Shown: piece by piece, positions 12,346 through 25,226 of the stretch
How the letters are laid out: every line of letters begins with the position of its first letter
Position numbering within the stretch: position 1 is the stretch's first letter
Source: a virus
IMG/VR virus record: IMGVR_UViG_3300025120_000019
DNA length: 64,000 nucleotides
Direction: 5' to 3' (one strand)
Notes under the pieces: generated by a model
The model's database searches: none
What the model saw: only the letters and a program-made list of their open reading frames with translations
Told to the model about the DNA's origin: nothing
Made by a program: the position numbers and the translations under genes

Positions 12346-14667
12346 TTATCCATACGGTGTATAACTTTGTTGAGATGTGCCTGCATCTTTCATTTTTACT
12401 GTTTTATCATTTGTACCAGTTTGTTTTACATCTTCTGGCTGGTTTGGTCTTCTTAATAATTTTAATCTTTGCGTAAACTGCCCTTTATTAAAACCATTAG
12501 ACAATGTTGTTACCCTATACAACCCACTAAAACTATCAACTGGAATAGTATCTTCTGGAAATATTACACTACCATCATCTCTATAATCAATAGGAGTTCT
12601 AAAATTAACAATTACATCAACTTCTCCACGCTGATATTCCATACTACCATTTGTTGTTGTATTTTCGTCTTGTTTTCCTGCTGTAAAATTTCCCATTCCG
12701 CTGTCAAAGATGTAATAAGGATCGCCAAGTATTTCAAGATCTAATTGAACTAAATCAACAAAACTATTAATAATGTTATCATTAAACATTTTAGCAATAC
12801 GTACTTTACTATCGTCTATCCCGGCGCCGCCACTGCCTTGTAAGCTAGAATTAGATACTGATATTTGTTGTGCAAACCCAGTTCCACTTAATCCGTTAAC
12901 TGTTTGGTTGATTATGCTTGCATCTTTGTCACCTTGTACAATATTCTGCTGTAATCCTCCGCCTTTGCGTTGTAAATTGTTTTGTCCAGCATCAGACATA
13001 ATACCTTTAAAAAAAGCGGCATTAATATTAATATCAAAGTTAATAATATCGTTATTTGCGCCTGTATATATGTAATTGTATTCTCTTTTAGCATTAGCCC
13101 TTAATTGTTCATAACTTAGTCCTGGATCTGCTGGTTTTTGTAAAGCACTAGAGTGTACTTTATATGGAACTACTCGATATACATATGTTTTTGCTAGTGT
13201 TCCGTCTTGTTGTTCGCGAGATACTCCGTCTTTTATAAAAGTTTGGGCATCTATTTTAAACCATTCTACCATTCCATCGGCATCAGCTGGTCTAGTTTTT
13301 AATTCTTTTGCCCAATCAGAAGTAACAACAACTTCCTCTATCATTTGTGTAACTTTTGTATCAGTATTAAATGTAAAACTCCTTTGTACAGGGTCTATTA
13401 CATTTTTTCCTCGTGTATAAACTTTGTTATTTTTATCGTATTGTTGTCCACTTTTGCCCATTGGTATTTTTCCTGGATCAGAATAGCTGTTTGCTATAGT
13501 TCCACTACCTATTGCATTAACGCTACCTGCACTTTGAGCTATTTGTGTCAGTCCTTCACTAATACTACTTTTGTTAAAAACTAATCCAGTTACACTACTT
13601 AAAAAAGCATCAAAGTCTTGTGGTGCTTGGGCACCTAAGAACCCTGTAATACTTTGGAATACACCGTTTATGTCTCCCGATCTAAAAGCACCAAGAACTC
13701 CTGTCAGAGCACCAAAGTTTGCTCCTCCAAATGCTCCGCCTATTGCTCCTGCAAGTGCATTCTGTCCTATATTTTTATTTCCGCCTATTGCACCTCCAAT
13801 AATTCCGCCAACTACACCTTTAGCAATATTACCAAATAACCTATTTCCTGATTTTTGCGGAGCCACTGTTGCTCCTTGATCAATTGAATTATTTTTTGCA
13901 ATACTACTTGCACTAGTAGCTATATCATTAGGAAAAGTTATAACAAGTTCGTCTGAAACTGGAAAATTACCTTCTGCTCTAAGCTCTTCGTATCTACCAT
14001 TCATTATTGTTGTTAAACTTTCGGGGCCTGTCTGCAAAATTTCTACCACATTTTTACCAGTAACAGTTATATCAGAATAAGTTCTATCAATTTGATCAAC
14101 TAGTGCTTGTTCATTCCACGGAATAGCTGTTATATCGTATCTTGTTCCACCACCACTTACATTAAACTCTGCATTTGTAAGTTTCATGGGAATTTTTCTT
14201 TGTAAATTTAATGTTTTTCCATCTTTATCAACCGTAACAGGCTTTCCATCATCGTCAAAACCAACAAATTCAATTGTAAGTAAAAAAGGTGCTTGTAAAT
14301 AATTTGTGTAACCAGCTTGTAATGACGCTATTTGCAATGTTTGCAAAAATAATCCCATACTATATGGTTCTATAACTTGGAATGAAATATTTGTTGCATT
14401 TGTTAATCTAGTCCTAGTATTAGGAACTACTAATGCTTGTATTTCTACATCCTCGATAAAATATTCTAGTTTGCCACCTATTTGTTCTTCAAAGATAGTA
14501 GAAACCGACGCTTCGCTTTTTCCACCACTTCTAAAAATTTCTAATTGTGGTTTGTCTCCAACATAGGTTTCATCAGGAAAGTTTACTTCATCTTTTGTTA
14601 GTACAGCAAATGTAAAGATATAATTATAGCTTGAATAAACGTGTAAAGGATTAATTTCAACTGCCAT
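12346..14667 (-). CDS. Baseplate hub / tail protein (gp27- or GPD-like)
   Basis: NPLH.YSSYNYIFT start; C-terminal LEILGDPY...FSGLYRVTTLSNGFNKGQFTQRLKLLR matches the hub-protein C-terminal signature; lies between gp53 and gp5. Confidence 0.6.
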   Translation of the reverse strand: MAVEINPLHVYSSYNYIFTFAVLTKDEVNFPDETYVGDKPQLEIFRSGGKSEASVSTIFEEQIGGKLEYFIEDVEIQALVVPNTRTRLTNATNISFQVIEPYSMGLFLQTLQIASLQAGYTNYLQAPFLLTIEFVGFDDDGKPVTVDKDGKTLNLQRKIPMKLTNAEFNVSGGGTRYDITAIPWNEQALVDQIDRTYSDITVTGKNVVEILQTGPESLTTIMNGRYEELRAEGNFPVSDELVITFPNDIATSASSIAKNNSIDQGATVAPQKSGNRLFGNIAKGVVGGIIGGAIGGNKNIGQNALAGAIGGAFGGANFGALTGVLGAFRSGDINGVFQSITGFLGAQAPQDFDAFLSSVTGLVFNKSSISEGLTQIAQSAGSVNAIGSGTIANSYSDPGKIPMGKSGQQYDKNNKVYTRGKNVIDPVQRSFTFNTDTKVTQMIEEVVVTSDWAKELKTRPADADGMVEWFKIDAQTFIKDGVSREQQDGTLAKTYVYRVVPYKVHSSALQKPADPGLSYEQLRANAKREYNYIYTGANNDIINFDININAAFFKGIMSDAGQNNLQRKGGGLQQNIVQGDKDASIINQTVNGLSGTGFAQQISVSNSSLQGSGGAGIDDSKVRIAKMFNDNIINSFVDLVQLDLEILGDPYYIFDSGMGNFTAGKQDENTTTNGSMEYQRGEVDVIVNFRTPIDYRDDGSVIFPEDTIPVDSFSGLYRVTTLSNGFNKGQFTQRLKLLRRPNQPEDVKQTGTNDKTVKMKDAGTSQQSYTPYG

Positions 14668-20619: not shown

Positions 20620-21960
20620 ATGAAAATAATACAGATTATAAACGAAGAAGTACCAAAAGGAACTGTCGTAGAAATAGACGGTAACAAGTTCACATGGCTT
20701 GGAGCTCAGTGGAAAAATGTTGCAACAAACAAGCTTGCAAGTAAAGCTGATAATAAAAAAATAAATGCTCTTCCTTCAGTAAAAGAATTAAAAGTATCTA
20801 ATAAAGTAGGAAACTTATCAATAGATAATAAAACTGTTTCATCACAAATGGTTGGCAAAGACAAGTTTGTTGTTACTTTTCAAGAAACAGAAAATGGAAA
20901 AAAAGTAAATCGTTCTGTTAGATTCAAAGATCCTAAATTAGCGGCAGGTGTTGCAAAGTCAATCAGAGAAGGTATGACTTTTAAGCAAGCATCAAAAGTT
21001 TTACCTAAAGATAGTTATAAAATATTAAACGTTGGTAAACTAATGACTAGCTTTAACATTGGTAGGTCAATGTCTAAGAGTCAAATAGATGCTTACATTG
21101 ACAAAGTAAAGGCAAAAGGAGCTAATGCACCTGGTGCCCAGAGATTCTTAAAAATAGTTAATGGCAAAATGTGGCAAGCTCTTGGAAGGTTCGGAGGGTT
21201 TGCTGGATTTCAATACTTACTTTATCAAACATTTGTTATTAACTATGATCAGGTGTTAACAGCTCCAGAAGACAGTTTTGAAAGTCCTGAAGGTAGACAA
21301 GAATTACTAGATGTAATTACTGGATTATATTCAACTCAAGTTATTCTTGGTATTGTTGCAATTTTAAGATCTGCTAAATTAACAAAATCATTTATAAACT
21401 TACTAAGAGCTCCAATAAGGGCATTTCAGGCAGGCGCATTGGTAACAGGAGCCGGAACAGTACCTGCTATTATTACAGCTATAGTTACTGAAGGTGCTTT
21501 TTTTGTTGCACTTTATGCCCTTTCAAATCCAACTGTACAAATGGAACTTGCCAAATATATTGCAAGCACAAGTGGAGGTGTCTTTTTTATAGGAGGCATA
21601 GGAAATTTAGCAAACAGTTCTATGCAAGTCCTTGATAGTTTAACAAACGGAGCCTTAGGTGGTGAAAGTTTACGAGATGCTATTGGTTTCAAAAAAGGCG
21701 TTACTAAGATGCCATCAGGAACTGCTTGGGCTTCTAGTGAATGGGCAAAACTTGCATTCCAAGATATGATTTTTCCTCCAGACATGGAAAAAATAAAAGT
21801 ACCCTATCTGTCTCCTGAGCGAAGAAGAAATGCAATATTTATTGCACTAGAAATGAAAGCACCTACTAGTACTACTACTAATCAACCTGCTCCAGGCCCT
21901 GGAGATCCTTCTGTACCTGGACTACCAACTAATCCAGATGCTCCGGCTGTACCACAGTAG
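20620..21960 (+). CDS. Late hypothetical protein with several hydrophobic helices; possible internal/ejected virion protein
   Basis: 446-aa ORF after a late promoter; basic N-half, hydrophobic Gly/Ala segments in the C-half, Pro-rich tail. Confidence 0.6.
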   Translation: MKIIQIINEEVPKGTVVEIDGNKFTWLGAQWKNVATNKLASKADNKKINALPSVKELKVSNKVGNLSIDNKTVSSQMVGKDKFVVTFQETENGKKVNRSVRFKDPKLAAGVAKSIREGMTFKQASKVLPKDSYKILNVGKLMTSFNIGRSMSKSQIDAYIDKVKAKGANAPGAQRFLKIVNGKMWQALGRFGGFAGFQYLLYQTFVINYDQVLTAPEDSFESPEGRQELLDVITGLYSTQVILGIVAILRSAKLTKSFINLLRAPIRAFQAGALVTGAGTVPAIITAIVTEGAFFVALYALSNPTVQMELAKYIASTSGGVFFIGGIGNLANSSMQVLDSLTNGALGGESLRDAIGFKKGVTKMPSGTAWASSEWAKLAFQDMIFPPDMEKIKVPYLSPERRRNAIFIALEMKAPTSTTTNQPAPGPGDPSVPGLPTNPDAPAVPQ

Positions 21961-21961
21961 T

Positions 21962-22159
21962 TTATAATAATGGCATTTTAGAATTTTTAGTATTTTCTAT
22001 ATTATCTTTAATAATCTTTGATATAACATCCTGATCCATAACATCAGTGTTGTACAGTAATGTATCAACAGAGAGTCCTCCTCTCATGTACCAACTGAGT
22101 CTATAGACAGTATCTTTTATTTTTTTAATATCTTCTTCAAACTCTTCGGCTAATAACAT
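21962..22159 (-). CDS. Small baseplate-hub/tail assembly protein (gp51-like position); probably the -1 frameshift extension of the upstream ORF
   Basis: LSWYMRGGLS motif; frame stays open upstream to the slippery site at 22195-22201; no clear SD before ATG 22159. Confidence 0.6.
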   Translation of the reverse strand: MLLAEEFEEDIKKIKDTVYRLSWYMRGGLSVDTLLYNTDVMDQDVISKIIKDNIENTKNSKMPLL

Positions 22160-22182
22160 TACTTCACTGTCATTAAGTTGTA

Positions 22183-23022
22183 TTAGCCTTTGGCGAAAAA
22201 ATCCGTTTGATCAACTGTTATCCTTAGTTGATTCTCTTTTCCGCAAGCGGCACAAACAACATTTTCAACTGGCAATAACCAAGCTTCGTATTGTGCATTA
22301 ATATGATCTTTAATAGCTTGATACATTTTAACATCATAGTTTTCTATAAAGTCAAAAATTGCTTTTATATCAGTTTCTGTTTCACCTTCGATATCAATAC
22401 TTTTTAATGAAAGTAAAATAGTTTTTAAATTTAGTTGTGCAATTTCTCTTAAAATTTTATCACGAAATTTATCTCTTTCGCTTTCTTCTACAATAGAAGG
22501 TAGTTGTATTGACATTGCACGTTGATATCCAACTGATTCTTTTTGTAAATCGGTATATTGTTGATATGTTAACGGTGATACATTAATTTTAAAATCTTGA
22601 TACATTAAGCTATCTTCAAACGTAAGTCCATTTAGATGATTAATATATTTTTGCAACTCAACTTCATACGTGTTTTCTTCTCCGCAATGTATACATTTTT
22701 GCGAAACTGACATAGTGCTACCATAAGTTGCCATTCTGATTGCTAATAGTATAGCATCAACATCTATTGATACTAGATCAAACGGCTTTAGAATAGATGG
22801 TATGCAACTTTGCATATTTGAAGCTGTTGCTTGACCGTTGATTAGAGCATCTGGTGTTTTGTAAAGAATCTCATCATTAGCAGTCATACTAAACACAGCC
22901 AAGTTAGTATAAGAATCTTCATAAAGAATACCAGGAGACTTATAATACTTTCCTTTGCTTGGTAAGTCTATATAAATCTTTGGTTGCCTTTGAAACTTCT
23001 TTAATGGGCTTTCATTTTCCAT
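22183..23022 (-). CDS. gp26: Baseplate hub assembly protein / tail chaperone, gp26-like
   Basis: PKIYIDLPSKG, MTANDEIL, DVDAILLAIRMATYG, two CxxC pairs (CIHC, CAAC), ends DFF. Confidence 0.75.
   Translation of the reverse strand: MENESPLKKFQRQPKIYIDLPSKGKYYKSPGILYEDSYTNLAVFSMTANDEILYKTPDALINGQATASNMQSCIPSILKPFDLVSIDVDAILLAIRMATYGSTMSVSQKCIHCGEENTYEVELQKYINHLNGLTFEDSLMYQDFKINVSPLTYQQYTDLQKESVGYQRAMSIQLPSIVEESERDKFRDKILREIAQLNLKTILLSLKSIDIEGETETDIKAIFDFIENYDVKMYQAIKDHINAQYEAWLLPVENVVCAACGKENQLRITVDQTDFFAKG
22195..22201 (-). other. Putative -1 programmed ribosomal frameshift heptamer T TTT TTC
   Basis: Minus strand GAT TTT TTC GCC AAA GGC TAA; the -1 frame reads CGC CAA AGG CTA ATA CAA CTT AAT GAC AGT GAA GTA ATG TTA..., in frame with ORF 21962..22159. 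Confidence 0.65.
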
Positions 23023-23087: not shown

Positions 23088-25226
23088 TTGGCGGCGTTAG
23101 ATGATTTAGTTTCTACCTCAGGTGCTGTAAACCTATTTGGTTCAGAACTTAAAGGCGCTACTAATTCTGTAGTAGGATTAGCTGGTAATTTACTTTCTGG
23201 CAGTATGAAGCTGTCTGATTACAGTAAATCTCTTGATACAAATACCAAATTATTAGGCAAACTTGGAAAAGTTGTAAATGCATTAACAATGTTTGCTGAA
23301 CAAAGTTTATCAGAATATCAAAGTTTAACCGGTATTGGTGCAAGCTTTGGCAAACAGATGACTGAAATTAAAATTGCCGCGGCAGAACTTGGTATGAGTG
23401 TAGAAGACATGACCAAGCTGTTTAAAGACAATGCAGAAGGACTTAGTGCTTTTGGGGGCAGTACAGATTCGGCTATTAGTGCATTTAGACAATTTAGTAG
23501 TAGTGTATTGTCCAGTGACGTAGGAACAGGGTTACGTAGACTAGGATACACCGTTTCTGATATAAATGAAAATTTACTAACATATGCAGAAATTGCAGAA
23601 CAAGATAATCAATTAGAGCGTAGTGTTGGTAGAGACAGAAATCAATCTGCACTTGAATTTGCTAAAGAATTAGACTCATTAAGTAAGCTTACTGGCAAAC
23701 AAAGAGACGAACTTGCTGACCAGATGAAAGAAGCAAGACGTCAAGGAGATGTACAAGCATTCCTTACAGGACAAAGTGCTGATGCAAGTGAAGCACTTAC
23801 TACAGGACTTACAAAAATAAGTTCAACAATGGGTCCTCAGTATGCAGAATTGTTTAAAGATTTATTGATACGAGGAGCACCAACAACTGATGCAACTAGA
23901 AGTGCTTTTGTTGCACTAGGAGATAGTGCAGATGAATTTCAAGCACAGGTCGATTCATTTAGATCCGGCATGAATACAGATAATTTTAGTCAGTTTGATC
24001 AATCTATATCAGAAACACAAGCGGCTTTTACAAGATATTTGAATACTGAGGAAGGTAGACAAATAGGTATGTTAGGTGGGTTAACAGACATAAGTCAAGC
24101 ACAAGGGCAACTACGTGAAGACTCTTATGTATTTGCCAATAGACTAAATGCGGCAGGCGATGCGGCTGAAGATACACTTGTAAAGTTACAGAGAATTACA
24201 ACTGAAATAGAAAGACAACAAGAAATCCAAATGGGTCAAGAAGATCCAAGGAATCTCATAGATGAAACTATTAGGTTAAACGAAACAACACGTGAGATGG
24301 TTTTAGCAACACAACAAAAAGCTTTAACAAACTTAGAAGAAATGGGTGTAACGGCATTACAAAAAGTTCAAGATGCAATGCCTAGTGTTGGCGAGATTAC
24401 AAACAAAATAGGCGGTGTAGTTGATAATTTATTTGAAGCCGCTGGAAGAGCTGATAAATTATGGAACAGCGGCAATGGTATGATAGATTTTCCAAATCTT
24501 GCCACAATGCCCGTTGAAAATTTAACGGTAAACGAAACTTCTGGTGGAAAGATTGCTACCTTAGAAAAGCAAGAAGAAGCGGCAACTATGGTATCAAAAG
24601 CAACTGATGCACAAGATATTGCTTTCACAAAAGTTGAAGATGCAACTAACAAATTAGCTGATCTACAAGCAACTGCCGCACAAATGACAACAGACGGCTT
24701 TACCAAACAGGATCCACAGTTTGCTGGTATTCAATCTGACATAGAAAGAGTTAGAGGTGATTTAGCAAAAGCAAAAAGTGAACTACTACAAAAGCAAGCA
24801 GACTTGTATACTGCACAAAGAATAAGAGATGGACGTAGAACAGGTAATTATACACGAGGATTTGCCACAGGAGGTAATATTCCAGGCGGAAAATTTGGAG
24901 TTGTTGGTGAAGCTGGTCCAGAGTTTGTATCAGGTCCTGCTAATGTAATGAGTTCAAGGTCGAGTATGGGTGTGGTAAACAACATGATGAGAACTATTAG
25001 AAACGTAGAAAACCGTGTTCAAGAAGGTGGGTCTAATGGTCAAAATTCGATAAGTAGTAATATAACTGATAGTATGGTTAGTATGCTAGAAGGTAAACTA
25101 AATGAACAAAACATGATATTACAAAATTTATTACAAGTTGAAACTACTGCATCAGAAACAGGCAAACGCCAATACAAAGCAACTAGAGGGCTAAGTGGTA
25201 ATATGCTAAAAGGAATAGGCGCATGA
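23088..25226 (+). CDS. Tail tape measure-like protein
   Basis: 712 aa, helical A/Q/E/L-rich; C-terminal FATGGNIPGGKFGVVGEAGPE motif typical of tape measure C-termini; next to the chaperone pair. Confidence 0.7.
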   Translation: MAALDDLVSTSGAVNLFGSELKGATNSVVGLAGNLLSGSMKLSDYSKSLDTNTKLLGKLGKVVNALTMFAEQSLSEYQSLTGIGASFGKQMTEIKIAAAELGMSVEDMTKLFKDNAEGLSAFGGSTDSAISAFRQFSSSVLSSDVGTGLRRLGYTVSDINENLLTYAEIAEQDNQLERSVGRDRNQSALEFAKELDSLSKLTGKQRDELADQMKEARRQGDVQAFLTGQSADASEALTTGLTKISSTMGPQYAELFKDLLIRGAPTTDATRSAFVALGDSADEFQAQVDSFRSGMNTDNFSQFDQSISETQAAFTRYLNTEEGRQIGMLGGLTDISQAQGQLREDSYVFANRLNAAGDAAEDTLVKLQRITTEIERQQEIQMGQEDPRNLIDETIRLNETTREMVLATQQKALTNLEEMGVTALQKVQDAMPSVGEITNKIGGVVDNLFEAAGRADKLWNSGNGMIDFPNLATMPVENLTVNETSGGKIATLEKQEEAATMVSKATDAQDIAFTKVEDATNKLADLQATAAQMTTDGFTKQDPQFAGIQSDIERVRGDLAKAKSELLQKQADLYTAQRIRDGRRTGNYTRGFATGGNIPGGKFGVVGEAGPEFVSGPANVMSSRSSMGVVNNMMRTIRNVENRVQEGGSNGQNSISSNITDSMVSMLEGKLNEQNMILQNLLQVETTASETGKRQYKATRGLSGNMLKGIGA

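Follow-up and report, generated by a model that had tools for sequence, protein, structure and literature searches.

Organization of the gp26-like locus

The window, the whole stretch of DNA that was analyzed, comprises 64,000 nt of IMG/VR record IMGVR_UViG_3300025120_000019 and derives from an uncultured marine giant T4-related phage. A gp26-like baseplate-hub assembly gene is located on the minus strand at 22183–23022, and its 0-frame product of 279 amino acids, termed the short form, matches the Pfam family PF12322 (T4_baseplate) over residues 56–276 with 35.5 bits against a cut-off of 24.5 and the PHROGs baseplate hub family phrog_150 at 7.5e-12. The protein has 902 homologues, and the best 120 of the 902 are all 250–300 amino acids in length. 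The family alignment, which includes T4 gp26, shows Cys-110 and Cys-113 to be nearly invariant (at least 90%), with Cys-257, Cys-260 and the adjacent Phe-275 and Phe-276 near the C terminus being invariant.

The 3' end of the 279-amino acid ORF reads CAA ACG GAT TTT TTC GCC AAA GGC TAA on the minus strand and contains a slippery heptamer, U UUU UUC (T TTT TTC in the DNA), at 22201–22195. The heptamer spans the codons of the invariant Phe-Phe, is phased as X XXY YYZ and precedes the 0-frame stop (22185–22183) by three codons. The -1 frame forms an extension of 77 codons and a stop on the minus strand (21962–22195), with the codons at 22195–21965 and the stop at 21964–21962, and its translation reads FF|RQRLIQLNDSEV-M... 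The ORF of 65 amino acids starting with ATG (22159–21962) is the 3' portion of this open frame. The predicted products are the short form of 279 amino acids and a long form of 353 amino acids (276 + 77) with the junction ...VDQTDFF-RQRLIQLNDSEV... The position and phase of the heptamer at the end of the gp26-like gene match the preliminary description of this DNA exactly, and the reading frames bear out the open -1 frame running into the 65-amino acid ORF and the two product lengths that it had put forward. No match to the 65-amino acid ORF is found in the named phages by tblastn, and neither the small ORF nor the extension has a family match in PHROGs, Pfam or NCBIfam. An ORF of 446 amino acids on the plus strand (20620–21960) is convergent on the extension with its stop at 21958–21960, one base from the extension stop at 21962–21964; it has no family match and is characterized by hydrophobic segments and a Pro-rich C terminus.

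A stem-loop on the minus strand (22148–22188) begins 6 nt 3' of the heptamer and is formed by arms at 22188–22179 and 22157–22148 (GGCUAAUA.../...UAUUAGCC). The 0-frame stop is located inside the 5' arm, and the ATG of the 65-amino acid ORF abuts and enters the 3' arm (columns 43–45 of the alignment compared with arm columns 45–54). The invariant base of the stem (AGG CUA ... UUA GCC) is shared with conserved codons for Arg-Leu and Leu-Ala, and not all of its conservation is therefore at the RNA level; the codons used at these residues are unusual for this AT-rich genome, and the covarying pairs are placed higher up the stem. Upstream of the slip site no SD-like stimulator is evident on inspection by eye.

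The divergent neighbor of the gp26-like gene is a candidate tape measure protein gene encoding 712 amino acids on the plus strand (23088–25226), with a T4-type portal gene next to it (PF07230, 4e-108). Residues 443–634 of the 712-amino acid protein match annotated tape measure proteins with an E value of 2e-5, and it is by this C-terminal region that the immediate divergent tape measure neighbor named in the preliminary description is identified; no match is seen to T4 gp29 by BLASTP or to PDB sequences. The divergent gp26-like/tape measure layout is also present in Phosso, PA5oct, RaK2 and pEa_SNUABM_47, and the syntenic neighbors in RaK2, PA5oct and pEa_SNUABM_47 are annotated as tape measure-like or as virion proteins detected by MS. 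In the PA5oct and RaK2 records the tape-measure neighbor is marked as an MS-detected virion protein, with the gp26-like gene unmarked, a hint that its product may be absent from virions. The window also contains gp6-, gp25- and gp5-like baseplate genes, genes for the gp55 late sigma factor and gp47/46, and genes for the prohead protease, major capsid protein and sheath, and these surroundings are, as judged from gene content, those of a T4-superfamily giant phage.

Conservation of the slip site, the -1 frame and the downstream structure

The IMG/VR sample includes 52 related loci with a complete 3' end and a further 80 retrieved with the extension motif W[YF]MRG[GSA][ILV]S, for which over 600 matching stretches occur in IMG/VR. 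The classifiable IMG/VR loci number 147, with 139 being split, 7 in frame and 1 cut by a contig end. The heptamer TTTTTTC is in phase in every split locus (139/139), and clustering of the split form gives 70 groups at an identity of 70%, 32 at 50% and 15 at 40%. An in-phase TTTTTTY together with an open -1 extension is present in nine of nine named jumbo phages (Atu_ph07, Phosso, PA5oct, RaK2, XacN1, Escherichia coli phage A4, Salicola SCTP-2, Erwinia pEa_SNUABM_47 and Ralstonia RsoM2USA), which share 23–29% identity with the window protein, and in all except two of them the heptamer is TTTTTTC. The extension has 76–77 amino acids in the environmental (marine and freshwater) loci and 71–82 in the named phages. 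The predicted junction is ...DPTHFF-RSQLLFSNPEEIK in E. coli phage A4 and other Asteriusvirus and ...NPVSFF-QRILVSGTPDDIR in PA5oct.

The -1 frame of the split loci opens just 2–15 codons 5' of the slip site, and the alignment of the extension peptide shows conservation from the first residue (R.RL..L.D.E...LA) as well as the W[YF]MRGG motif. The residues encoded 5' of the window's ATG are conserved among relatives, and codon periodicity in this intergenic-looking stretch is 0.99/0.75/1.43 compared with 0.80/0.49/1.22 in the rest of the extension. The first ATG, GTG or TTG of the -1 frame varies in position from codon -20 to +36 and is often merely the Met of WYMRGG, and the PA5oct extension has no start codon at all. 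The preliminary description had looked to homologues for conservation of the heptamer, of the -1 phase and of protein similarity 5' of the ATG; the heptamer and phase are retained throughout both sets of loci, and the similarity, like the codon periodicity, reaches back to the slip site. Its remark that the ATG of the small ORF has no clear SD extends to the relatives, in which neither a start nor an SD of the small ORF is conserved. These comparisons indicate that the -1 frame is coding from the slip site onward, and the in-frame fusions described below show that both parts are one polypeptide in other lineages.

Database annotation of the extension is uneven. It is unannotated in the GenBank/RefSeq records of PA5oct (locus L009, 2325–2566), RaK2 (L010, 2334–2560) and RsoM2USA (L173, about 1560–1830), and the records of A4, SCTP-2, pEa_SNUABM_47, XacN1, Phosso and Atu_ph07 give it as a "hypothetical protein" of its own, truncated in most cases. 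The slip site of RsoM2USA (L173, just 5' of position 1580) is a run of nine T, GTT TTT TTT TCC, the length of which means that transcriptional slippage could add to ribosomal slippage in this phage.

As the Phe-Phe at the slip position is invariant as protein across the family, T4 gp26 included, the codons alone are weak evidence, and it is the nucleotide pattern that is informative. Elsewhere in long ORFs, Phe-Phe is encoded as an in-phase T TTT TTY in 3 of 26 cases in the window and in 1 of 57 in the related loci, giving a background rate of 2–12%, and the occurrence of the heptamer exceeds this chance expectation. The UUC in the A site is retained though 86% of the Phe codons in the window are UUU. 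Five in-phase TTTTTTY heptamers are present in the long ORFs of the window, and only the one at 22201–22195 coincides with a gene end and a long open -1 frame. The other four, at 21498 on the plus strand and at 13015, 2317 and 601 on the minus strand, are all mid-gene with -1 frames open for 0–43 codons and give no hint of programmed shifting.

The 10-bp helix of the stem-loop was compared across 21 diverged sequences, in which 90.5% of cells are paired compared with 77% in shuffles (0 of 500 shuffles reaching the observed value), whereas sliding one arm gives pairing of 17–42%. Compensatory changes occur at 5 pairs, amounting to 35 cells in the same 21 sequences. Of 70 representative split lineages, 29 have their first helix of at least 5 bp exactly 6 nt beyond the heptamer, and 43 have it at a distance of 4–8 nt. 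Over the next 70 nt the MFE averages -16.1 kcal/mol in the split lineages compared with -9.7 kcal/mol in six in-frame loci. The stems of Phosso, PA5oct and XacN1 also start 6 nt downstream despite having unrelated sequences, and the predicted downstream structure is weak in RaK2 and pEa_SNUABM_47.

In-frame fusions and the relation to T4 gp26 and gp51

A profile of the extension compared with 1.8 billion representative proteins finds 217 proteins, most of which are short ORF calls with starts at many different profile positions. Seventeen of the 217 (cluster representatives) are 319–351 amino acids long and have the gp26-like body and the extension in frame, and their fusion joint, ..LDLDF..xF-R.(K/R)L(I/V).., is in the same place as that of the frameshift product, DFF-RQRLI. 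The 7 in-frame IMG/VR loci (L090–L096) have non-slippery junction codons, for example CAA TTT AGA, and across the in-frame fusions (L090–L096 and proteins P0151–P0259) a single Phe, not two, is present at the junction and the downstream RNA structure is weaker. Two much larger proteins, P0197 (2295 amino acids) and P0211 (1435 amino acids), show 7 and 5 separate matches to the extension profile, respectively, and these multiple matches may be helical repeat or low-complexity similarity. In a quick tree, in which the T4 branch is very long, the in-frame forms are found in at least three places, comprising a 16-member clade beside the window's marine clade, one locus nested in a split clade and a basal grade, and the frameshift and in-frame architectures appear to have interconverted. 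The in-frame lineages encode only the long form, which suggests that the short form may not be universally required.

The AF2 model of the in-frame fusion P0192 is one confident unit (pLDDT 95.5, pTM 0.90) in which the extension is predicted as four helices (residues 256–331) packed on the body and forming no separate domain. A homologue search with P0192 returns only P0192 itself. Foldseek of the AF2 model against the PDB gives no match, and a VIA wide search with it gives helical-hairpin matches only (Z of at most 8.3) with no informative fold.

Both T4 proteins belong to the same family as the window protein. PF12322 matches T4 gp26 (208 amino acids) over residues 1–206 at 8.8e-64 and T4 gp51 (249 amino acids) over residues 1–201 at 3.9e-52, leaving over a tail of ~48 amino acids in gp51, and direct alignment of gp26 with gp51 has an E value of 2e-6. 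The Phe-Phe codons of T4 gp26 are in the non-slippery context GAG TTC TTT, and gene 25 is directly next with no extension between; T4 is thus without the signal, in line with the earlier statement that this frameshift is not known from T4. Profiles of the long form align with the gp51 family profile (19 sequences) colinearly to the last residues, with probabilities of 79.5 and 89.8% and E values of 1.5e-5 and 1.8e-6. For the tail of gp51 alone, a broad extension profile (119 sequences) gives a probability of 59.5% and an E value of 9e-5 compared with 0.2% for a reversed control. The profile of the marine-clade extension has a probability of only 0.3% against T4 gp51 or its family, and the extension HMM searched against the T4 ORFs ranks gp51 first but with an E value of 2.9. 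A second Pfam family, PF28602.1, is recorded on T4-type gp51 homologues (P0272–P0363) and presumably covers the gp51 C-terminal tail. The in-frame fusion P0192 carries no record of this family.

The equation of gp26 with the short form and gp51 with the long form has good support as regards the body and the architecture, and support for homology of the tail is moderate; T4 appears to make the same short/long pair from the separate genes 26 and 51. The "gp26/gp51-like pair" of the preliminary description stands at the profile level, where gp51 is paralogous to gp26 within PF12322, differing by an additional tail at the C terminus, and the long-form profiles are colinear with the gp51 family. 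T4 gene 26' (locus L012, 3803–4090) is an annotated internal in-frame start in gene 26 giving a C-terminal product of 95 amino acids, and by it T4 makes nested products of the PF12322 family by yet another route.

Predicted frameshift, alternatives and comparison with known systems

It is highly likely that a conserved programmed -1 ribosomal frameshift takes place in the one gp26/gp51-family (PF12322) gene of this phage, and this gene very probably yields proteins of both 279 and 353 residues. Most ribosomes would read GAU UUU UUC and terminate three codons on, giving the short form. A fraction of ribosomes would pause at the hairpin beginning 6 nt downstream, allowing the two tRNA-Phe to re-pair one base back (from UUU UUC to U UUU UU), and the shifted ribosome would then read CGC CAA AGG... 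and 77 more codons in all to give the long form. Sequence comparison supports the frameshift predicted in the preliminary description through the signal and the coding status of the -1 frame, and adds the hairpin; from the same comparison we infer the actual occurrence of the shift.

Three other explanations of the arrangement can be considered. The 65-amino acid ORF (ATG at 22159) could be a separate small gene, expressed by its own initiation or by termination–reinitiation, with the heptamer being mere Phe-Phe codons. The in-frame ATG of the window would suit such a gene, as would the ATGA overlap at extension codon 1 in Atu_ph07 and Phosso, where GenBank has small ORFs annotated, and the conservation of Phe-Phe as protein even in T4. 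However, the position of the start is unconserved (-20 to +36, often the Met of WYMRGG and absent in PA5oct), whereas both conservation and codon periodicity begin at the slip site. The heptamer is moreover fixed at the nucleotide level, far over the 2–12% background, with T4, which has no extension, using TTC TTT. In the window the ATG lies against the edge of the 3' arm of a conserved stem and extends into it, and natural fusions exist in which both parts are in frame, leaving a separate gene very improbable. That the split is an artefact, either a homopolymer sequencing indel or a decaying gene with the in-frame 353-amino acid form being the real gene, is scarcely credible, as the same split in the same phase is present in 139 independent metagenomic contigs and 9 finished phage genomes obtained on different sequencing platforms; the break does fall inside a T run and in-frame versions do occur in other lineages, but these have different, non-slippery junction codons with a single Phe.

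Slippage might alternatively occur during transcription, with RNA polymerase adding an extra U in the U6 run and standard translation producing the identical fusion. The homopolymeric site, extended to T9 in RsoM2USA, is compatible with this mechanism, and at the protein level the product is the same. A run of six U is, however, short for efficient slippage by bacterial or phage RNA polymerase (reviewed in PMC5009743). The run is exactly six followed by C-G in 139 loci with no drift to longer runs, and a covarying hairpin at the canonical 6-nt spacing fits a ribosomal stimulator, so that the constancy of the run, the C retained after it and the distance to the hairpin all favor the ribosome. 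Transcriptional slippage is for these reasons unlikely to account for the long form, and it may be a minor contributor on U6 to a product that is probably made principally by the ribosomal frameshift.

The best reading of the function of the predicted pair is that of a hub and tape-measure assembly chaperone, a role suggested by the tape measure adjacency, the T4 genetics and the two-product logic. Both forms would be non-virion assembly factors for the baseplate hub and the tape measure protein, in the manner of T4 gp26 (short) and gp51 (long, the "hub assembly catalyst") and with a logic like that of gpG/gpGT. Leiman et al. (2010, PMC3004832) list both T4 proteins as hub assembly chaperones. 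Searches of Pfam, PHROGs and NCBIfam give no match to the known tail assembly chaperone (TAC) families and return the baseplate-hub family only. The equivalence with G/GT proposed in the preliminary description is an analogy, with two products by a predicted -1 shift and the tape measure adjacency in its favor, and against it the divergent orientation, the lack of a match to a TAC family or fold and the lineages having only the long form.

No published report of this gp26/gp51-family frameshift was found in literature searches. The mechanism is a canonical -1 frameshift and its logic resembles that of G/GT, both being already known kinds; what is new is the family to which the gene belongs, its setting in the genome and the existence of three interchangeable solutions, namely frameshift, in-frame fusion and the two T4 paralogues. 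To our knowledge, what T4 gp26 and gp51 do in hub assembly has been obscure for decades. A strictly conserved predicted frameshift, present in hundreds of T4-related giant phages in their only gp26/gp51-family gene, joins this puzzle to that of the T4 exception, and it leads to the prediction that T4 uses gp26 as the short form and gp51 as the long form of one assembly factor. A review describes G-T frameshifting as conserved in long-tailed phages "except T4" (PMC5009743). A broader and tentative proposal, which can be regarded as possible but rather doubtful, is that the gp26/gp51 family is the T4-superfamily counterpart of lambda G/GT, the body binding the tape measure protein in hub assembly and the frameshift tail coupling the next partner. 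The ancestral state on this proposal would be one gene with a -1 frameshift, which T4 and close relatives duplicated into 26 and 51 and others fused in frame, and replacement of an ancestral frameshift by duplication in T4 would, if true, explain T4 as the one reported exception. The annotation of PA5oct, RaK2 and RsoM2USA should be corrected by addition of the missing extension, and that of the other phages where it is truncated. The prediction is open to experiment in cultured phages of E. coli, Klebsiella and Pseudomonas.

The E/E+E' frameshift of phage P2 uses a T-run site. Conserved -1 frameshifts of tail assembly chaperone genes were reportedly described by Xu, Hendrix and Duda in 2004 and are reviewed in PMC5009743. 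As with lambda gpG/gpGT, the window locus is predicted to give two N-coterminal products, the longer by a -1 shift shortly before the short ORF ends, and the gene adjoins the tape measure gene with an expected role as a non-virion tail assembly factor. In a clear difference with lambda, the proteins belong to another, larger family (279/353 amino acids compared with about 140/280), and the gene is divergent from the tape measure gene, whereas G/GT are co-oriented with and upstream of it and placed after the tube gene. Further differences are that there is no match to a TAC family or fold, that the extension is modeled as packed onto the body and that some lineages have the long form only.

The E. 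coli dnaX frameshift, which generates tau and gamma, has in common with the window locus a homopolymeric X XXY YYZ heptamer, a stem-loop at about 6 nt and two forms from one gene. In dnaX, shifting yields a shortened protein and draws additionally on an SD-like element upstream of the site, whereas the shift here would extend the protein and no such upstream element is evident. In the comparison with T4, gp26 and gp51 are of the same PF12322 family, the short form here ends just past the Phe-Phe like gp26, the long form carries a helical C-terminal tail like gp51, and the genes adjoin hub and tape-measure genes. T4 differs in having two paralogous, divergently transcribed genes with no slippery site, in place of which the window has one gene and a predicted frameshift.
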